Part shown: positions 24,810-33,256 of the stretch, piece after piece
Position numbering within the stretch: the first letter of the stretch is position 1
Layout of the letters: every line of letters begins with the position of its first letter
Assembly: GCA_038231455.1 (NCBI GenBank)
Contig: JBBRLI010000012.1
Coordinates: 1-64,000, forward strand
Direction: 5' to 3'
Length of the DNA: 64,000 nucleotides
Source of the DNA: Vulcanimicrobiales bacterium
GTDB taxonomy: Bacteria; Vulcanimicrobiota; Vulcanimicrobiia; Vulcanimicrobiales; Vulcanimicrobiaceae
The notes under the pieces: model-generated
Seen by the model: only the letters and a program-made list of their open reading frames with translations
The model's database searches: none
Told to the model about the DNA's origin: nothing
Made by a program: the position numbers and the translations under genes

Positions 24810-25061
24810 CTAGTCAGATGTGAACGGAAGGAACGCGATGATCCGGGCGCGCTTGACGGCGACCGTCAGCGAACGCTGGTGGCTCGCGCAGTTGCCTGAG
24901 ATCCGCCGGGGCAGAATCTTGCCGCGCTCCGAGATGTACTTGCGAAGACGCGTGGCGTCTTTGTAGTTGATGTCGGGCAGTTTGTCCGCACAGAAGGTAC
25001 AGACTTTTTTCTTTGGCCGACGCTCTTTTTTGGCATTGGCACGTTTTTTCGGGGCAGCCAT
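24810..25061 (-). CDS. rpsR: 30S ribosomal protein S18 (Cys-containing, Zn-binding type)
   Basis: [25 protein letters not shown]; start 25061 or 25076. Confidence 0.96.
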
Positions 25062-25347
25062 GGGTCTCGCTTTCATGTAGGTGGTTGCGGCGTCAACCCG
25101 GGGGGTTGGGCCCTACACACGGCGCCTCTTATAAAGAGAGGCGACGACCCGTCGACAAAGGGTGACGGGCTTTATGCAGTTTTCGCGACTTTGGGTCGCA
25201 CGATAGTATACCGCGACCGGGGCACGACCGCTACCCCTTTGGCCGCCTTTAACGCCGCATGTGTCGTGGTAGAGGGCCATGGCAAGCGTTCAGAGGAGGG
25301 AGTAAAGTGTTTCTCATCACTACGGAATCCGAAGTGATGGGGAGTAC

Positions 25348-25448
25348 AATCCGATGGTCAACTTGGTTCGTTGAGGAAACGTGCCGAGGGCCTCGCGTGG
25401 CAACGCGGGTCGAAATCGTACCACCCGGTAAATTTTTGGTTATCGGAT
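25348..25448 (+). ncRNA. Candidate structured RNA, copy A of the leader motif
   Basis: Shares ccga-N-acttggtt-N-aggaaacgt...cgaaa-tcgt-accacc with copies B and C; 13-bp closing stem 25349-25361/25436-25448. Confidence 0.35.
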
Positions 25449-25452
25449 CAGT

Positions 25453-25469
25453 CTTTACAGTCGCTTTAC
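25453..25469 (+). promoter_or_regulatory. CTTTAC-N5-CTTTAC direct repeat (candidate regulator site)
   Basis: 11-bp period; same arrangement at 28342-28358. Confidence 0.45.
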
Positions 25470-25492
25470 ACGGTTACGTGTAGAAACTGTGA

Positions 25493-25629
25493 CGAGTGCC
25501 CGACCGAAGTACTTGGTTAGTAAGGAAGCGTCTCGTTCCGGTGCAGGATGAGACGAAACGTGACAGCACCACCACCAGCGTCCCTTGCGTTTAGAGCAAG
25601 GGCGAGTTTCGCATTGGTCATGTGAGCTC
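25493..25629 (+). ncRNA. Candidate riboswitch-like leader, copy B
   Basis: Four hairpins plus pseudoknot GGTGC/GCACC; base-pair covariation with copy C. Confidence 0.55.
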
Positions 25630-25675
25630 TCAGACGCCCTAAAATCGGCGTCCGCCGCCGTACGAAGGAATGAAC

Positions 25676-26698
25676 ATGAAACGTCTTGCCGCCCTCACCG
25701 TTACGTCGCTCCTCGCGCTTTCCGCTTGCAGCGGCGGCGGGACGACCGCCACCCGTGCCCCGGGTGTCGCAGCTCCGGCCCCCTCAAAACAGATTCTCTC
25801 CGCATACCGCGTGCCGCTTACCCACAGCGCCGCGGTCGACGCTGCTGCTGCTGCCGGTGCAAAACTGCATCAGGCCGACGGGCGCGGAACGCAGGGCCTC
25901 GGCGGTTTGCCGACGCTCGACGGCTTGGTCGATACCACGTTTGCGATTCTCGACGCTCCGCGCTTCGGCGCCGATGGCCAAGTCAACGTCGCGATTCTCG
26001 CCGTTCAGGCAATCGGCGCTGACGGCGTCGCGTATTCACTCGTCAACTACCCGGCCCCGGTTGTCGTGAACATGCTCAACTACAAGCGCAGCGCGCTTGT
26101 CCTCGGACACAGCCCGATTCCGAAGCAGGACTACACGACGCTTCGGCTCGTCGTTCAAGCCTCGGCATCATCGCTGCATGCTTGGGGCTCGACGTATCCC
26201 GTGGCGTATGGTTACTACAGTAACCACACATTCATGCCGGCGGCGGGCGACATCGCGAATGTCGATTTTCCCGTGAAAATGAACACTTCAACCGGTCTGC
26301 CGACGATCCTTGCAGACTTCAACACCGTCGAATCGGTCAAGGTGCGTGATGGTCGTGCCCAAATCGGATCGCGCATTGCAGCCGCGCCGTACAATTCCTC
26401 GTCGGTCATCTCCGGTACGATCGTCAATAAAGCCGGCACACCCGTCGATGGCGCCGTCATCGCGGCTCTGGATGCGAATGGCAATGTCCTCAACACCACG
26501 CAGAGTGACGATGACGGCACATTCGAGATCCACGCCATCGCCGGCGGCACCTATCAACTCGTCGTCTACAATGACTACACCACTGCAGCTGGCGACGAAC
26601 TCCAATCCGAACATGCCGATTCCTCGGCAACGCTCAACGGTCCGCAGGTCAGCGTCCCCGGTGGCTACTCCATCAACGTCGGCAAAATCACCGACTAA
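25676..26698 (+). CDS. DUF4382-like lipoprotein with C-terminal carboxypeptidase-regulatory-like domain (copy 1)
   Basis: Lipobox LSAC; VNVAI..VNML..VLG..IP..Y..LRL; ISGTIVN..DGTFEI..GGTYQL. Confidence 0.75.
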   Translation: MKRLAALTVTSLLALSACSGGGTTATRAPGVAAPAPSKQILSAYRVPLTHSAAVDAAAAAGAKLHQADGRGTQGLGGLPTLDGLVDTTFAILDAPRFGADGQVNVAILAVQAIGADGVAYSLVNYPAPVVVNMLNYKRSALVLGHSPIPKQDYTTLRLVVQASASSLHAWGSTYPVAYGYYSNHTFMPAAGDIANVDFPVKMNTSTGLPTILADFNTVESVKVRDGRAQIGSRIAAAPYNSSSVISGTIVNKAGTPVDGAVIAALDANGNVLNTTQSDDDGTFEIHAIAGGTYQLVVYNDYTTAAGDELQSEHADSSATLNGPQVSVPGGYSINVGKITD

Positions 26699-26744
26699 CT
26701 CCGGCTCTCACTTATTCACTTATATTTCGGGAGTATGATTTAGT

Positions 26745-28277
26745 ATGACGGAGATTATCGATCTTCGCGCCGCACTGGATGCGGCAAGAAGTGCGCTAAC
26801 TGCGGCACGGTACGACGATGCGATGGAACTGCTACGCGGCTGCCAAGACTGGCCGGTCGACCTTGCAGAACACGCGGTCCTCGTAAAAGCCGACACCTTG
26901 ATCCGCCGGGATGCACCGGCAGCACTGGCCTGGCTTGCAGCGACGCAAGACCTCACGATCACCGATGCAGCACGTTTCAATCGCGAACTGCTCACCGGTC
27001 GCGCATACAGCAACGTTCGCAACTTCGATGCCGCGGCATCGCGTTTCGCTCGCGCTGAAAAAATGCTCGACAAAGTCCCCACCGGGTCGCATAAACTCGC
27101 ATACCAGAAGGCACGCCTAGCCTGGATGCTGCGTGAAGCAACGCCGGACAACGCGGACCTCGCGCTCGCCCTTACGGATCCCGATCCGATCGGCCGCGCC
27201 GTCGCCTACGCCGCTCGCGGCTACATCGCCGGTACCGCCGGCGACTTCGCCGCCCAAATCGCCGATCTCAAAACGTCGCTCGAAATCGCTGAGTCAACGA
27301 AGGTCTATGACGTCGAACACGTCGGCGCCGCCATCTATGGCCTGGCAACGATCGCGTTCGAGGTTGCCGACAAAGACGGCGTTGTTGCGGCTCGCCGCGC
27401 GTACGAATGGCTGAAGTGGACATCCGATGTCCGCGTCACGCAGTACAACGCGCTCCGGTGCCTGGGTTGGGATGCGTTCATGCGCGGCGAACCCGCACGT
27501 GCACAGTGGCTCTTCCACGACGCCGCCGCCATCGCACCAACGCCCGCCTGGCAGGCCCAAGCCCATCTCGATCGTGCGTATGTCGCACGCATCTCCAAGA
27601 ACGACGCCTGGTCGCTCGACGAGCTCCACGAAGCACTGCGCATCGCGCAGGGTGTCGCCTGGGGCGAGACGATCGGCGAGGAACGCCTCACCCTGGTCAC
27701 CTTAGCCGTGCTGCTCTCGCCGGTCGATGCAGCGGAAGCCCAGCGCTACGCATCGACGTACGCGATGTTCGGGATGGAGAATGTCAACCCGTACCTCGTG
27801 GCCTCAAAAGACAAGCGCACAACCGGTTTTGGCAAGTACACCCAAGGCAAGATCGATCAAACGCTCGGCAATGCCGATCTTGCGATCGAATCACTCGAAG
27901 CCGCCTACGCAATCTTCGCACCCATCGGTCATCACTACCAGGCGATGCTCGCCGCACAGGCGCTCGCCGAAGTTACCCGCGATGCCGCATGGGCCGAAAA
28001 GGCCGGAATGCACAGCGCCGCCTACCCGGGCAGCCCGCTCGCCGCACAAATGGCCGAGTCGGCAAAACCCGGCGACCCGGCAATCGACGGTCTCTCACCT
28101 TTGCAGCGCCAGCTCGCTCGCGCGCATTGGTCGGGTCTGAACGTCGATGCTCTCTCGAAGAAGTTCAGTCGTAGTATGTACACCATCGAAGGTCAACTCG
28201 CCGAGATCTATGCCGCGTTCAACGTGGCGAGCGCCGGCGGACTTCGCGAAGAAGCGCTCCGGCGCGGCATCGCCTAG
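26745..28277 (+). CDS. TPR-like protein with C-terminal LuxR-type HTH (copy 1)
   Basis: Helical Ala-rich repeats; C-terminus GLSPLQRQLARAHWSGLNVDALSKKFSRSMYTIEGQLAEIYAAFNV. Confidence 0.75.
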   Translation: MTEIIDLRAALDAARSALTAARYDDAMELLRGCQDWPVDLAEHAVLVKADTLIRRDAPAALAWLAATQDLTITDAARFNRELLTGRAYSNVRNFDAAASRFARAEKMLDKVPTGSHKLAYQKARLAWMLREATPDNADLALALTDPDPIGRAVAYAARGYIAGTAGDFAAQIADLKTSLEIAESTKVYDVEHVGAAIYGLATIAFEVADKDGVVAARRAYEWLKWTSDVRVTQYNALRCLGWDAFMRGEPARAQWLFHDAAAIAPTPAWQAQAHLDRAYVARISKNDAWSLDELHEALRIAQGVAWGETIGEERLTLVTLAVLLSPVDAAEAQRYASTYAMFGMENVNPYLVASKDKRTTGFGKYTQGKIDQTLGNADLAIESLEAAYAIFAPIGHHYQAMLAAQALAEVTRDAAWAEKAGMHSAAYPGSPLAAQMAESAKPGDPAIDGLSPLQRQLARAHWSGLNVDALSKKFSRSMYTIEGQLAEIYAAFNVASAGGLREEALRRGIA

Positions 28278-28293
28278 GAAGAAAACCGAACCG

Positions 28294-28328
28294 AGAAAAA
28301 AGCACGAGCGCGGCTCGTGCTTTTTTCT
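28294..28328 (+). terminator. Intrinsic terminator after cassette 1
   Basis: agaaaaaagcacgagc-gcg-gctcgtgcttttttct. Confidence 0.9.
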
Positions 28329-28380
28329 TTTGTTCTGAAGACTTTACGCTGGCTTTACACAGTTACGTATAGATTTTGTG

Positions 28381-28518
28381 ACCGAAATCCGACCCCTTAT
28401 TGGTAAGTAAAGGAAGCGTCTCGTCCTGGTGTTGGGCGTGGCGATGAACGCGAACACCACCACTCATCCGGCGATCGACTTTAGATCGCTGGGTAGTTCC
28501 GCGTTTGGTCGATGCGGA
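28381..28518 (+). ncRNA. Candidate riboswitch-like leader, copy C
   Basis: Same architecture as copy B with compensatory changes (TGGTGTT/AACACCA pseudoknot); last hairpin abuts the RBS. Confidence 0.55.
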
Positions 28519-28531
28519 CGAAGGATGAAGA

Positions 28532-29554
28532 ATGAAACGTCTTGCCGCCCTCGCTGTTACGTCGCTCCTCGCTCTGTCCGCTTGCAGCGGCGGCGGGACG
28601 ACTACCCGTGCGCCCGGCGTAAACGCTTCATCGCCGACAAAGCAGATTCTCTCCGCGTACCGCGTGCCACTCGTGCACGTGGCTTCGGTCGATGCGGCTG
28701 CTGCCGCCGGTGCAAAACTGCAACGCGATGGAACCCGCGGAACGCAAGGCCTCGGCGGATTGCCGACGCTCGACGGATTGGTCGATACGACATTCGCCAT
28801 TGTCGACGCTCCGTACTTAGGCGACGGCGCAAAGGTCAACGTCGCGATCGTTGGCGTCCAGGCCGTTGGTGCCGACGGCGTGGCGTACAATATCGTAACG
28901 TACTCGAGCCCGGTCCTCGTGAACATGCTTGACTACAAATCAAGCGCCCTGGTTCTCGGACACAACCCGATCCCAAAACAGCAATATACAAAAATGCGGC
29001 TCCTCGTGCAAGGGACGGCCTCATCCGTGTATGCATTTGGGCAAAACGATAGCGCGAAGTTCGGATCGTACGATGCATCGCATATCTTCACAGCGGATAC
29101 GAGCGACACCTCAGCGATTGACTTCCCAATCCTCCTCGACGCCTCGAACAGCGCACCGACGATTCTGGCCGACTTCAATACCGTCGAATCGGTGACGATC
29201 GCCGGCAATGTCGCGCAGATCGGTTCGATCATCACCGCAGCCGTTTACGACAACTCGACGATTATCTCGGGCACCATCGTGAACAACGCCGGCAACCCGG
29301 TCAGCTCGGCGGTCATCGCAGCCATTGATGCCAGTGGCAACGTTGCGCAGACCACGATTACCGAGGCTGACGGCTCCTTCGAACTGCACGCGATCGTCGG
29401 CGCGTCGTACGGCCTGATCATTCACAACAGCTACACCACAAGAGCCGGCGATACGGTCCAGGCCAAAAATGCCGACGGCAGCGCCGACATGACCGGCCCA
29501 CACATAACGGCACCTCCCGGATATAAGGCCGACATCGGCAAAATCACCGACTAA
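28532..29554 (+). CDS. DUF4382-like lipoprotein (copy 2)
   Basis: Paralog of 25676-26698; near-identical N-terminus, divergent middle. Confidence 0.75.
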   Translation: MKRLAALAVTSLLALSACSGGGTTTRAPGVNASSPTKQILSAYRVPLVHVASVDAAAAAGAKLQRDGTRGTQGLGGLPTLDGLVDTTFAIVDAPYLGDGAKVNVAIVGVQAVGADGVAYNIVTYSSPVLVNMLDYKSSALVLGHNPIPKQQYTKMRLLVQGTASSVYAFGQNDSAKFGSYDASHIFTADTSDTSAIDFPILLDASNSAPTILADFNTVESVTIAGNVAQIGSIITAAVYDNSTIISGTIVNNAGNPVSSAVIAAIDASGNVAQTTITEADGSFELHAIVGASYGLIIHNSYTTRAGDTVQAKNADGSADMTGPHITAPPGYKADIGKITD

Positions 29555-29600
29555 TTCGAGCTCTCACTTAGTCACTTACCTTGCGGGAGTTTGAATGAGT

Positions 29601-31133
29601 ATGACGGAGATTATCGACCTTCGCGCTGCACTGGATGCAGCAAGAAGTGCGCTAAGGGCCGCCAGATATGACGAAGCGATGGATATTCTTCGCGGTTGTC
29701 AAGACTGGCCGGTCGATCTAGCCGAACACGCGGTTCTCGTTAAAGCCGACACCTTGATCCGCCGGGACGCTCCGGCGGCACTTGCCTGGCTTGCAGCGAC
29801 GCAAGACCTCACGATCACCGATGCAGCGCGCTTCGATCGCGAACTGCTCACCGGTCGCGCATACAGCAACGTTCGCAACTTCGATGCCGCGGCATCACGT
29901 TTCGCACGTGCGGCGAAACTGCTCGAAAAAGTCCCCACCGGGTCGCATAAACTCGCATACCAGAAAGCGCGCCTTGCCTGGATGCTGCGTGAAGCAACGC
30001 CGGACAACGCGGATCTTGCGCTCGCCCTTACGGATCCCGATCCGATCGGCCGCGCCGTCGCCTACGCCGCTCGTGGCTACATCGCCGGTACCGCCGGCGA
30101 CTTCGCCGCCCAAATCGCCGATCTCAAAACGGCACTCGAAATCGCCGAATCAACCGACGTGTACGACGTCGAACACGTTGCCGCCGCAATCTACGGACTA
30201 GCGACGATCTCGTTCGAAGTCGCCGATCAGTCCGGCGTGAATCGCGCCCGCCAAGCCTACGATCGTCTCGCGTGGACCGCCGACGTGCGCGTCCACCAAT
30301 ATAACGCGGTTCGATGCCTGGGTTGGGATGCGTTCATGCGCGGCGAACCCGCACGCGCCCAGTGGCTCTTCCACGACGCCGCCGCCATCGCACCCACGCC
30401 CGCCTGGCAGGCCCAAGCCCACCTCGATCGTGCGTATGTCGCACGCATCTCCAAGAACGACGCCTGGTCGCTCGACGAACTCCAAGAAGCCCTGAAAATC
30501 GCGCAAGGCGTTGCCTGGGGCGAAACGATCGGCGAGGAGCGTTTGGCCCTCGTGACGCTCGCGGTGCTTTTGGCTCCGGTAAACGCACCCGAAGCCCAGC
30601 GCTACGCCGCGACGTATGCCATGTTCGGCATGGAAAATATTAACCCGTACCTCGTCGCATCGAGCGATAAACGCACGGTGGGCTTCGGCAAATACACACA
30701 GGGCAAGATCGAACAGACCCTCGGGAACGCCGACCTCGCGCAAGAAGCGCTCGAGGCCGCCTACGCGATCTTCGCTCCGATCGGTCATCAGTACCAGGCG
30801 ATGCTCGCCGCGCAAGCCCTTGCCGACGTAACGAAAGACGCCGTTTGGGCCGATAAAGCTCGTATGCACAGTGCGGCGTATCCGGGCAGCCCGCTCACCA
30901 CTCACATGGCCGAATCGGCGAAGCCAAGCGATCCCGCGATCGAAGGACTCACGCCGTTCCAGCGTCAGCTTGCGCGCGCGCACTGGTCGGGCCTCAACCT
31001 CGATGCTTTATCGAAGCAGTTCAGCCGCAGCATGTATACGATCGAAGGGCAGATCGCCGAGATTTACGCGGCGTTCAACGTTGCGACGGCCGGCGGTTTG
31101 CGTGAGGAAGCGCTCCGGCGCGGCATCGCGTGA
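29601..31133 (+). CDS. TPR-like protein with LuxR-type HTH (copy 2)
   Basis: About 53 substitutions in 510 aa vs copy 1 (manual count). Confidence 0.75.
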   Translation: MTEIIDLRAALDAARSALRAARYDEAMDILRGCQDWPVDLAEHAVLVKADTLIRRDAPAALAWLAATQDLTITDAARFDRELLTGRAYSNVRNFDAAASRFARAAKLLEKVPTGSHKLAYQKARLAWMLREATPDNADLALALTDPDPIGRAVAYAARGYIAGTAGDFAAQIADLKTALEIAESTDVYDVEHVAAAIYGLATISFEVADQSGVNRARQAYDRLAWTADVRVHQYNAVRCLGWDAFMRGEPARAQWLFHDAAAIAPTPAWQAQAHLDRAYVARISKNDAWSLDELQEALKIAQGVAWGETIGEERLALVTLAVLLAPVNAPEAQRYAATYAMFGMENINPYLVASSDKRTVGFGKYTQGKIEQTLGNADLAQEALEAAYAIFAPIGHQYQAMLAAQALADVTKDAVWADKARMHSAAYPGSPLTTHMAESAKPSDPAIEGLTPFQRQLARAHWSGLNLDALSKQFSRSMYTIEGQIAEIYAAFNVATAGGLREEALRRGIA

Positions 31134-33256
31134 TCATCGGCGTCGGCGCGATCGCGCTTTTGGCTCTCATCACCGTCGGCGTGCTGATCTTTCGGGTCAG
31201 CGCGCTTTCGTCGTCGATGAAAACCGAGAGCTCGGCAGCGGACGATGCAAACGAGCGGCGCTATACGCTCCTCGAAGCGATTCCCGACGGTGTGTACATC
31301 ATCGATGCCGACGAGCGACTAACCCATATGAACGAGGAGGCAGAACGGCTTCTCCGATCGGAACCGGGTGCGTTCGTGGGACGTGCGATCGAGTCGATTC
31401 TCGATCCGCTCGCCTCGGATCTCATTCCGGAGATCCGCCTAGCACGCCAACAGCGCGAGATCATCTCGCGCGTTGTCTATTTCCGAGCCACCGGCTGGTG
31501 GGTAGAAATACGCATCAAGCCGGGTGCGAAAGAAACCGTCATTTACTTACGCGACGTCACGGTTCGTAAAAGTGCCGAAGCAAAACTCGTCGAGAGCGAA
31601 AGCCGCTTGCGACTCCTGATGGATCAGGTCCCCGCGGTGCTCTGGAGCGCCGACCGGTTAGGCTGTTTTGCATCGCTGTCGGGCGCGGGACTGCCGTCGC
31701 TCGGAATTCGCGAATCCGATCTGCTCGGCAAATCGTGCGCGAGCTTTCTCGGTGCCGAAGACGCGCTCACCTCGCTTTCCACCGTCTTTGAGGGGACGCC
31801 GGTCGAATTCGAATCGCGCCGCCGCGATCGCTGGCTGCGCCACCAGGTCGAGCCGCTCCGCGGTGCGGATGGCCGCGTGATCGGGGCCGTCGGCGTCTCG
31901 CTCGACATCACCGAGATCAAAGATACGCAGCGCCGCCTCGAAGCAATGGCCCGTCGCGACGCGCTTACGGGACTTCCCAATCGCCTCGCACTCGAAGAGC
32001 TGCTTTCCGCCGCGATCATGGGAGGACAACAAGAGCGCGAAGGCACGTTCTCGGCCGTCCTCTTCGTTGACCTCGACCGTTTTAAGACGATCAACGACAC
32101 GCTCGGCCATCGCGCCGGTGATGAAGTCTTGCGCATTGCGGCGGAGCGGATGCGCTCGAGCATCGGTGCTCGCGACGTCATCGCGCGTCAAGGCGGCGAT
32201 GAATTTATCGTGGTCCTGACCTCGACGACCTCACCGGACGATGTCGGCGCGGTTGCGGCACGCATCTTGCGCCGCTTTGCCGAGCCGATCATGCTCGACG
32301 GGCATCAGCTTTTCGTCGGTGCTAGCATCGGCGCGGCGCTCTCGCCGCAGCATGGCACGACCGCCGAGGAATTGATCAAGAACGCCGACGCTGCGATGTA
32401 TCGCGTTAAAGCCGGCGGCCGCGGAACCTTCGCATTTTATGAAGCGAGCATGGACGAAGCGGCACACGACCGTCTCGCACTCGAAGCAGAACTCCGCGTC
32501 GCGCTTCAAACCGACGGACTCCGTTTGCTCTTCCAGCCCATCATCGACGTGCCGACCGGACGTATCATGGGTGCCGAAGCGCTCATCCGTTGGAGCCATC
32601 GCACGCGCGGGGAGCTTGCTCCCGACCAGTTCATCCCGCTCGCCGAAGAGAGCGGCTTAATCATCGACATCACCAAATGGGTGTTGCGCCGCGCTTGCGC
32701 ATTTGCCGCAACCGTGCGTACGACGCGCCCGGATTTCCGCGTCAGCGTGAATTTCTCCGCACGCGATCTGCGCGAAGCAAACCTCGTCGAAACGGTCGAG
32801 GCGGAACTCGCGCATGCGGGACTCGACCCCGATGGCCTCGAGGTCGAGGTCACCGAGAACGTGTTCCTCGAAGACGAATCGATCGAACGACTCAAAGATT
32901 TGCGCAATCTCGGCGTACGAATCGCCGTCGATGACTTCGGCATCGCGTACAATTCGCTCGCCTACGTCAAACGTTTGCCGATCACGTCGCTCAAGATCGA
33001 CAAGTCATTCATGCATGACGTCATGGCGGACCGCTTCGATCAGGCGATCGTTAAGGCGATCGTCACACTCGGACTCACACTCGGCCTGCACGTCATTGCC
33101 GAAGGCGTCGAAACCGAAGCGCAGTGGTATTTCATGAAAGAACTTGGTTGCGGCCAAGCCCAAGGCTTCCACTTCAGCCGCGCCATCGAATCAACGGCAA
33201 TCCAGGCGATGTTCGACGTCCCCCCGAGCTTCGTGTCGCTGAGTAAATCCGCGTAG
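31130..33256 (+). CDS. Membrane-anchored PAS-PAS-GGDEF-EAL protein
   Basis: N-terminal TM helix; DALTGLPNR, DLDRFKTIND, GGDEF, AEALIRW, DDFG, LKID, EGVET; GTGA overlap with upstream gene. Confidence 0.95.
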   Translation: MIIGVGAIALLALITVGVLIFRVSALSSSMKTESSAADDANERRYTLLEAIPDGVYIIDADERLTHMNEEAERLLRSEPGAFVGRAIESILDPLASDLIPEIRLARQQREIISRVVYFRATGWWVEIRIKPGAKETVIYLRDVTVRKSAEAKLVESESRLRLLMDQVPAVLWSADRLGCFASLSGAGLPSLGIRESDLLGKSCASFLGAEDALTSLSTVFEGTPVEFESRRRDRWLRHQVEPLRGADGRVIGAVGVSLDITEIKDTQRRLEAMARRDALTGLPNRLALEELLSAAIMGGQQEREGTFSAVLFVDLDRFKTINDTLGHRAGDEVLRIAAERMRSSIGARDVIARQGGDEFIVVLTSTTSPDDVGAVAARILRRFAEPIMLDGHQLFVGASIGAALSPQHGTTAEELIKNADAAMYRVKAGGRGTFAFYEASMDEAAHDRLALEAELRVALQTDGLRLLFQPIIDVPTGRIMGAEALIRWSHRTRGELAPDQFIPLAEESGLIIDITKWVLRRACAFAATVRTTRPDFRVSVNFSARDLREANLVETVEAELAHAGLDPDGLEVEVTENVFLEDESIERLKDLRNLGVRIAVDDFGIAYNSLAYVKRLPITSLKIDKSFMHDVMADRFDQAIVKAIVTLGLTLGLHVIAEGVETEAQWYFMKELGCGQAQGFHFSRAIESTAIQAMFDVPPSFVSLSKSA

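Follow-up and report, generated by a model that had tools for sequence, protein, structure and literature searches.

A candidate family of structured leader RNAs upstream of lipoprotein cassettes in Vulcanimicrobiota

Do the 5′ leaders of two tandem lipoprotein cassettes in a Vulcanimicrobiales bacterium carry a regulatory RNA, and if so, what kind of RNA is it? The cassettes lie on the plus strand of a 64,000-nt stretch of contig JBBRLI010000012.1 (hereafter the window) from a host genome of 3.7 Mb, and each consists of a lipoprotein gene followed by a gene for a tetratricopeptide repeat (TPR) protein of 510–512 amino acids. An earlier note on this DNA had proposed that the leaders of both cassettes (here B and C) contain a pseudoknotted, cis-regulatory RNA. 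The Vulcanimicrobiota (Eremiobacterota, WPS-2) are widespread and almost entirely uncultured, and their gene regulation is essentially unknown. We propose that B and C are paralogous copies in an undescribed leader RNA family found in one family of Vulcanimicrobiota, an explanation that, taken as a whole, we believe and doubt in about equal measure. Judged from sequence, the element itself is a previously undescribed structured leader RNA, a subtype of a family for which covariation support comes from a sister genus.

Diverged leaders that keep one fold

The window type was compared in five leaders from three species: B and C; two from G056, the one other species that the genome collection has for this genus, of which G056-1 is an orthologue of B and G056-2 a further copy; and M070, an orthologue of B on one metagenome contig (the single locus from a metagenome scan). 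Helix tables, with coordinates fixed by hand for four canonical leaders (positions in Table 1), bear out the claim that B and C have diverged in sequence while sharing a fold, with 156 of 170 cells canonical overall. Hairpin P3 is built from three unrelated stem sequences that pair in 40 of 41 cells, with changes on both sides at 9 aligned positions; the unrelated stems of the earlier note thus stand, and the TTTA that it placed in their loops does not, the loop in G056 being GACU. P4 (35/37 cells, 1 both-sided change) was found as described, abutting the Shine–Dalgarno sequence (SD) in C, with its loop UGGUC kept in four of the five leaders and therefore short of invariant; the complementarity of this loop to the upstream GACC (GACC/GGUC) is invariant in sequence. 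A fifth hairpin, P5, had been missed: it is present in B, G056-1, M070 and G056-2 (22/24 cells, 2 both-sided changes) and deleted in C.

The 5′ domain gave a more mixed result. The block AAGCGTCTCG is invariant (25526–25535 in B and 28414–28423 in C) and the P2 stem holds (37/40 cells canonical, changes mostly one-sided), both as proposed, and the GGAA that had been cited there is not conserved in relatives (CAUAAG in G056, AGUAAG in M070). The proposed pseudoknot of the P2 loop with a downstream partner is plausible in this genus: loop positions 2–6 pair with GCACC in 19 of 20 cells, with 2 both-sided changes, position 6 reading C-G, U-G, U-A and C-G across four leaders and position 7 A.A, C.A, U-A and C-G, and position 2 being broken in M070 by changes on both sides. 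No counterpart of it is supported in the sister type described below. The P2 loop is alternatively complementary to the invariant upstream AUUGG, a pairing that would copy the topology of the sister genus (g25) and between which and the pseudoknot four sequences do not discriminate. Two further features of the earlier note fell away: the ACCAC after the pseudoknot is not conserved in relatives, and the CCGACC-loop hairpin is confined to B, where its 5′ arm probably lies at or before the transcription start. Also rejected were a pairing of ACCA with the P4 loop (not conserved, and absent in G056-1), a pairing of GCGUCC at the 5′ base of P3 with the 5′ strand of P5 as an alternative to P5 (contradicted by compensatory changes in M070 and G056-2) and CsrA-type GGA sites (not conserved).

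In an alignment of the five leaders based on a covariance model (CM; alignment A4), 88.0% of cells pair, versus 27.8–45.9% with the partners slid, and 6 of 35 pairs are changed on both sides. The covariation score is reached by 0 of 500 shuffles, a control inflated by relatedness at five sequences from three species, and at this sample size formal covariation significance is out of reach. Counted over the five elements, the four canonical leaders have 17 G-U pairs and 6 A-C pairs, in line with the earlier note; four of the six A-C cells lie at pseudoknot ends, and the counts for stems P2–P5 alone are 16 and 2. This excess favours a plus-strand RNA.

A reading without any RNA function would see in B and C a likeness left from their duplication, or operator sites acting at the DNA level. 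B and C are indeed paralogues, and the upstream intergenic DNA is also 60–73% identical between species, leader identity in aligned columns being 53–75%. However, the lipoprotein genes of paralogues and orthologues agree at only 49–54% of third codon positions, which is near saturation, yet the leader helices pair through different sequences; the P3 stems are unrelated and yet pair almost throughout, and a diverged homologue has 29 of 41 pairs covarying. We therefore regard this reading as extremely unlikely. That the window-type leaders form a real plus-strand RNA structure seems highly probable, and that they act as cis-regulatory elements, likely.

The second leader of G056 has lost P2 and the pseudoknot and has three P4 mismatches and an altered loop, with P3 and P5 kept. 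The cassette behind it (L069, 6859–7185) has been cut by deletion to a 108-amino-acid remnant before a gene for a PAS-GGDEF-EAL protein: a first deletion joins the first lipoprotein codons to the C-terminal part of the TPR protein, and a second, internal one takes out most of the putative helix-turn-helix. Here, leader decay evidently accompanies gene loss.

Contigs of one DNA run (X1) also cover the locus. Among the variants listed, none falls inside leader B; one contig carries small insertions near 28514–28518, at the junction of P4 and SD of leader C, and another (538 nt) differs at 35 positions over 26679–26957. The sample probably contains a related strain as well.

Searches for known and related families

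The earlier note had suggested a covariance search against Rfam and a search of related genomes with a model of the leaders. The first matched no known family, and searches of related genomes and metagenomes yielded the three further window-type leaders. At the gathering score, Rfam 15 has no match in the whole window and none in 20 sister-type loci. At E ≤ 10, searches of 25300–28700, 25470–25690, L070 2790–3020 and L172 1420–1700 returned nothing relevant; the matches within leaders were mir-3193 and RAGATH-24 (each E = 7, 13 bits), which are noise. In the same searches the cyclic di-GMP (c-di-GMP)-II model (RF01786) was silent even at E ≤ 10 on a 221-nt query, as was the c-di-GMP-I/GEMM-I model (RF01051) on window-type and sister-type loci, and the loose likeness to c-di-GMP-II that had been pointed out is accordingly dropped. 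With no Rfam 15 match and with compensatory changes in relatives, the proposal of a plus-strand, cis-regulatory structured RNA outside known classes is supported.

Relatives by sequence are few. BLAST of leader B against its own genome finds B and C only, a search of 62 loci by nhmmer with the five window-type leaders gave nothing above noise, and a pattern scan of genome contigs returned 66 stretches, of which one is real (G056) and the rest are chance. The covariance model R1 was run on two sets of 151 genomes, one from the family and one from the phylum, with 21 candidates scored per genome, and matched only in the window's genus (g1); its weak matches are chance, several falling on the start of an apparent CheA-type gene (named by eye). 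As this search scores only these candidates, its blanks are weak, and the sister type was at first missed.

A sister type in a second genus

After model searches had found nothing outside genus g1, the sister type was traced through the regions upstream of lipoprotein/TPR genes. Genus g25, of the same Vulcanimicrobiota family, carries a long leader related to B. In ten g25 leaders aligned with MAFFT only, 89.3% of cells pair, versus 34.5–48.3% with partners slid, and 24 of 41 pairs are changed on both sides. A model built from these ten (R2) gave 45 matches in 27 of the 31 genomes of g25, and in 32 aligned copies the figures rise to 92.0% (slid, 36.1–50.1%) and 29 of 41 pairs. In the same copies, five of six pairs covary in the hairpin Ha, which lies outside the R2 model, and six of seven in the helix S1 that crosses it, so that an H-type pseudoknot of Ha and S1 in the sister type is strongly supported by the aligned sequences. 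A four-base closing helix, Pc (ACGG/CCGU, exact in 26/32), encloses P3, P4 and P5. A further helix, Hb, was not supported. Blocks invariant in the sister type are GGGUGA, CCCACGGUA, CUCUCG and GUUUCC.

How are the two types related? Common to B and the g25 leader by eye are CG(U)CC...GGCG at the base of P3, the base of P4 followed by CGAGCUCUCGG, P5 and CGCCGCC; the leader of G059 likewise has the shared 3′ domain (P3, P4, CUCUCGG, P5, CCGCCGCC). A model of this 3′ domain built from g25 and G059 sequences, with the window's genus left out (R3; search space 205 kb), matched G056-1 (E = 0.0039), B at 25579–25657 (E = 0.045, 21.9 bits) and M070 (E = 0.062), E-values that for the g1 leaders are marginal singly and come from a rough model calibration. 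Each match falls exactly on P3–P5. In this search C and G056-2 were unmatched, C as would be expected of a leader without P5. In the 5′ domain, P2 and S1 are alike by eye through AAG(A)CGUC...GGUGAG(G)ACG, and P2 appears to be homologous to S1. The two types would thus share a 3′ domain and differ in the knotting and closing of the 5′ domain.

Some of what is conserved does not covary. CCGAC, AUUGG, AAGCGUC and the loop UGGUC are invariant without a covarying partner, AAGCGUC is retained in a short leader of G036 that lacks the 3′ strand of P2, and the motif AUUGGY occurs twice in window-type leaders (by eye). Such blocks would suit a leader in which a protein or small RNA acting in trans reads single-stranded sequence and controls translation or decay. 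The module encodes no candidate binding protein, however, its TPR protein looking like a DNA-binding regulator of LuxR type (a lead only), and a fold of about 140 nt with a pseudoknot and a multi-way junction exceeds what most protein sites need. We consider such a trans-acting factor unlikely, if still deserving of attention.

Promoters and probable transcription start

Each lipoprotein gene is preceded by a block CTTTAC-N5-CTTTACA-NN-GTTACGT-N8-TGTGAC. The block is invariant across all five window-type leaders (31–36 of the 42 positions in the 42-nt promoter block are identical between paralogues or orthologues), and the CTTTAC repeat pattern has two sites in the 3.7-Mb genome, both at leaders B and C. 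TTTACA and TGTGAC are 17 nt apart, and at the same place G036 has, by eye, TTGACG-17-TGTGAT followed by the same CCGA motif. In six promoters TGTGAY follows TTTACA or TTGACG at a distance of 17 nt and is therefore probably the −10 box, and we infer that transcription starts near 25493–25501 (B) and 28382–28390 (C). A scan for consensus sigma-70 promoters gave nothing at promoter B, and a sigma-54 promoter is absent. The terminator between the cassettes (Table 1) means that cassette C needs its own promoter.

The CTTTAC direct repeats, with their 11-bp spacing, are also seen ahead of lipoprotein/TPR cassettes in several genera, with leaders that are not related in other respects. They are probably the site of the cassette's own LuxR-type regulator, to judge from this placement.

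The position of the −10 box bears on the idea of a translated leader peptide, in which a 10-codon upstream open reading frame would begin at the GUG of UGUGAC and the position of the ribosome would set the folding of P2. A short frame starts at the same place in all five leaders and ends just before P2 in four (VTEIRPLIGK, VTGVRPHIGQ, (V)MDARRIIGQ, MDFRPNNG), but a 2-nt insertion in B shifts the frame, which there runs for 20 codons through P2; there is no upstream SD, and TGTGAY is better read as a −10 box, which would put the GUG outside the transcript. We judge this explanation very unlikely.

Genes behind the leaders and possible ligands

We examined 36 sister-type leaders (the 32 aligned copies and 4 weaker ones). 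Of these, 30 stand before the lipoprotein gene, with the TPR gene next wherever the contig continues, 2 directly before the TPR gene and 4 before a PAS-GGDEF-EAL gene whose product is 46–48% identical to the window's homologue. Genes of the module thus follow 36/36 sister-type and 5/5 window-type leaders, and a PAS-GGDEF-EAL gene is also the last one in the operons behind leader C and G056-2. At one sister-type locus (L161 in G091, about 1612–1680), an 8-codon remnant of a lipoprotein start (MKARTEPS) lies between a truncated leader and the PAS-GGDEF-EAL gene, which suggests that the enzyme gene gained its leader by cassette deletion, as in G056. A structured 5′ untranslated region (UTR) with covariation support and a coherent gene set, two of the generic marks of a riboswitch, are both found here.

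This association with GGDEF-EAL genes, stronger than the earlier note could know from one locus, makes a cyclic dinucleotide the leading guess for a ligand. The leaders would then be riboswitches for c-di-GMP or another cyclic dinucleotide, exerting feedback on a module that pairs a c-di-GMP-making and -breaking enzyme with a surface lipoprotein. c-di-GMP riboswitches are often found upstream of GGDEF/EAL and surface-protein genes, and the conserved junctions, the pseudoknot and the short invariant closing helix beside the start codon would fit, as do the leaders directly before the enzyme gene and the operons of cassette C and G056-2. However, neither class of c-di-GMP riboswitch in Rfam matches, most copies precede the lipoprotein rather than the enzyme, and any signal could enter wholly at the promoter, through the LuxR-type regulator and the CTTTAC repeats. 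As a specific alternative we hold this to be quite improbable.

A possible switch on translation

For the family as a whole we favour a model in which a helix of the sensor domain competes in cis with the start region for one 3′ strand. The 5′ domain would comprise the helix after AAG(A)CGUC (P2 or S1), involved in a pseudoknot, and the 3′ domain the hairpins P3, P4 and P5 joined by the conserved junctions CUCUCRG and CGCCGCC. Two partners would be open to the 3′ strand of Pc in the sister type: the 5′ strand of Pc, which closes the helix, and the ACGG next to the AUG, in which case UUCC covers the SD. A folded sensor, bound by a ligand or factor and with Pc closed, would free the start codon and turn expression on. 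In B and C, the analogous rivals for the 3′ strand of P2 would be its own invariant 5′ strand, AAGCGUCUCG, and codons 2–5, AAACGUCUUG, and the loop pseudoknot would lock P2.

The tail of the sister type is consistent with this arrangement. After GCCGU, which is the Pc 3′ strand, come UUUCC, a GGRR resembling an SD and finally ACGG directly before the start codon; in 21 of 32 leaders this end reads ACGGAUG, so that the start region carries a copy of the Pc 5′ strand, and in the predicted tail folds of many sister-type leaders GCCGU pairs with ACGG(AUG) and UUCC with the SD, through strands without variation. In the window type, unconstrained minimum-free-energy folds of B, G056-1 and M070 pair the 3′ strand of P2 with the early coding region, and the duplex of this strand with the start region is better than in random windows in G056-1 only (fraction 0.0000–0.0067). 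No intrinsic terminator was found inside the leaders, and intrinsic attenuator control of transcription is therefore unlikely. A conformational switch on translation initiation of the kind described is, on these alignments and folds, a proposal that we rate a little short of an even call; that it is a small-molecule riboswitch is possible but rather doubtful.

Several observations weigh against the proposed family and switch, beyond the inflated shuffle control and the marginal E-values of R3 mentioned above. A search for RNA sequencing runs that cover the locus listed none, so that transcription of the leaders, like its start, is inferred. The single both-sided change in P2 hinges on gap placement and is lost in the CM-based alignment. 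On structure-blind MAFFT alignments the alifold z-score (versus column shuffles) is −2.6 to −3.7 on the plus strand and as good or better on the minus strand (−3.5 to −5.4), so that for the choice of strand we rely on G-U counts and on the order of genes. The R2 model, with the 5′ domain and Pc in it, leaves B and C unmatched at E ≤ 1, and no ACGG/CCGU pair flanking the 3′ domain is seen by eye in the window type; we therefore treat B and C as a distinct subtype rather than as the sister type proper. Conversely, the counterpart of the window-type P2-loop pseudoknot is 65.5% paired in the sister type, equal to shuffles, and Pc never varies and is thus untouched by covariation. The duplex energy of start region and P2 3′ strand, compared with random windows, is borderline in B (0.036–0.056) and no better than random in C (0.37–0.47) or M070 (0.20–0.66), the 10-mer likeness between the P2 5′ strand and the coding start is not above that of shuffled leaders (185–499 of 500 reach it) and the SD is mostly unpaired in the predicted folds of B, G056-1 and M070. 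A conserved anti-SD was not found in the window type.

The largely unpaired SD and the lack of a terminator would also agree with a constitutive structure that senses nothing, either a 5′ stabilizer that shields an abundant lipoprotein mRNA against 5′-end-dependent decay or a fixed damper of translation, and a small hairpin is possible at the inferred 5′ end (CCGA/UUGG or GACC/GGUY). A 5′-terminal hairpin suffices for stabilizers, however, whereas here four or five helices, a pseudoknot and junctions are conserved over genera, and the start region of most sister-type leaders carries a copy of a sensor-helix strand. We find the constitutive reading decidedly unlikely, and continue to favour the translational switch.

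Comparison with known systems

The present RNA resembles c-di-GMP-I and -II riboswitches in its 5′ UTR position before surface-protein and GGDEF/EAL genes and shares a pseudoknot with class II, but it is composed of a 5′ pseudoknot domain and three hairpins, with a four-way junction in the sister type, and to our knowledge the layout of neither class is like this. Translational riboswitches such as the SAM-II/V, preQ1 and THF types alternate the 3′ strand of P1 with a sequestor of the SD or AUG. The short closing helix with an alternative start-region pairing (sister type) and the H-type pseudoknot in the sensor are alike; the present RNA is much larger (about 140–180 nt), lacks Rfam similarity to these types and owes its proposed switch to sequence comparison. 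The ompA mRNA has a stabilizer hairpin in its 5′ UTR, and leaders of that type are likewise structured, precede an envelope protein gene and have no terminator, but the present RNA has far more conserved structure, plus the sensor-strand copy at the start codon. With the orphan candidate riboswitches and structured leader motifs known from comparative genomics (reviewed in PMC7266159 and PMC10043782) the present RNA has in common that it is a covarying 5′ UTR motif with a narrow taxonomic range and few associated genes, of unclear function; it differs in lying outside Rfam 15 and in the Vulcanimicrobiota. A literature search on DUF4382 found nothing related to leaders, and searches joining Eremiobacterota/Vulcanimicrobiota (WPS-2) to riboswitches found no paper on both, only general ones on motif discovery, supplementary files being outside the search.

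The analysis thus yields a covarying, pseudoknotted RNA of ~140–180 nt, three covariance models (R1, R2 and R3) and a defined regulon in which a surface lipoprotein is linked with a LuxR-type regulator and a c-di-GMP enzyme, and with it a candidate riboswitch or RNA-switch class open to in vitro testing without culture. It is a tentative suggestion, on the doubtful side, that the two subtypes together make up a new class of riboswitch, which would sense c-di-GMP or another nucleotide second messenger and switch translation of the module on. If true, this would be the first such class to be defined from Vulcanimicrobiota, and if the subtypes use different helices in the same start-codon competition, they would provide a natural case of expression-platform rewiring.

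Cassette proteins and neighbouring features

Table 1. Features of the cassette locus and related repeats (window coordinates unless a locus is named)
Feature	Position	Strand	Remarks
Promoter B	25453–25493	+	CTTTAC-N5-CTTTAC 25453–25469; TTTACA 25465–25470; GTTACGT 25473–25479; TGTGAC 25488–25493
Leader B (lipoprotein 5′ UTR)	25494–25675	+	182 nt
Leader B, 5′ block	CCGACC 25500–25505; UUGGU 25513–25517	+	Conserved
Leader B, P2	25529–25538/25546–25555; loop 25539–25545	+	10-bp stem
Leader B, pseudoknot partner GCACC	25566–25570	+	Complementary to P2 loop GGUGC
Leader B, P3	25579–25604	+	Hairpin
Leader B, P4	25605–25628; loop UGGUC 25615–25619	+	Hairpin
Leader B, P5	25631–25654	+	Hairpin; overlaps CCGCCGCC 25652–25659
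Leader B, SD GAAGGA	25664–25669	+	
Lipoprotein B	25676–26698	+	Signal peptide with lipobox; DUF4382 and CarboxypepD_reg (Pfam)
TPR protein B, probable LuxR/GerE-type helix-turn-helix regulator	26745–28277	+	Weak TPR_8 match (Pfam)
Hairpin terminator between cassettes, strong	28293–28329	not assigned	17-pair stem, then T run; partial terminator-like Rfam matches only
Promoter C	28342–28382	+	CTTTAC repeats 28342–28358; TGTGAC 28377–28382
Leader C	28383–28531	+	149 nt; P5 deleted
Leader C, P2	28417–28426/28434–28443; loop 28427–28433	+	
Leader C, pseudoknot partner AACACCA	28453–28459	+	Complementary to P2 loop UGGUGUU
Leader C, P3	28466–28494	+	
Leader C, P4	28495–28520; loop UGGUC 28506–28510	+	Abuts SD 28520–28525
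Lipoprotein C	28532–29554	+	DUF4382 and CarboxypepD_reg; paralogue of B, 64% identity
TPR/LuxR-type protein C	29595–31133	+	Paralogue of TPR protein B, 90% identity
PAS-GGDEF-EAL protein	31130–33256	+	Domain matches; start overlaps TPR gene stop by 4 nt
CTTTAC-type repeats elsewhere	L011 1125–1141; L036 about 1318–1336; L029, L032, L034		

The ATG at 25676 was taken as the start of lipoprotein B from the alignment to cassette C. The TPR proteins B and C are 90% identical paralogues; the protein has no GerE match in Pfam, no NCBIfam match and no relative in the PDB by sequence, its C terminus resembles a LuxR helix-turn-helix by eye, and its nearest ESM Atlas clusters are TPR+GerE (LuxR-type) proteins of Vulcanimicrobiota, which is a lead only. 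The 4-nt overlap of the PAS-GGDEF-EAL start with the TPR stop makes this gene part of the operon that begins with leader C.

Amino-acid identity among the four copies is 58–71% for the lipoprotein versus 83–90% for the TPR protein, so that the lipoprotein diverges much faster than the TPR protein that it adjoins. Protein searches found the lipoprotein in 75 of 201 genomes of the family and the far better conserved TPR protein in 99 of 201, usually adjoining the lipoprotein and often duplicated; these tallies take in a few genomes flagged as unpublished, on which none of the sequence-level claims rests. G059 holds two cassette copies 5.1 kb apart (L013) with identical scores in both protein searches.

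Upstream of the cassettes, the minus strand of 25077–25200, which precedes rpsR (24810–25076), is near-invariant across three species and has conserved hairpins with compensatory changes (for example, CAACCC/GGGUUG versus CACCCC/GGGGUG), with an alifold z of −3.6 on the minus and −1.9 on the plus strand, and Rfam is silent there at E ≤ 5; this could be an rpsR-rplI leader. Further on, at 25317–25350, the divergent stretch that separates rpsR from cassette B has a conserved hairpin (CAUCACU...AGUGAUG) and after it GAGTACAAT, similar to a −10 box; G056 and M070 have kept this arrangement.

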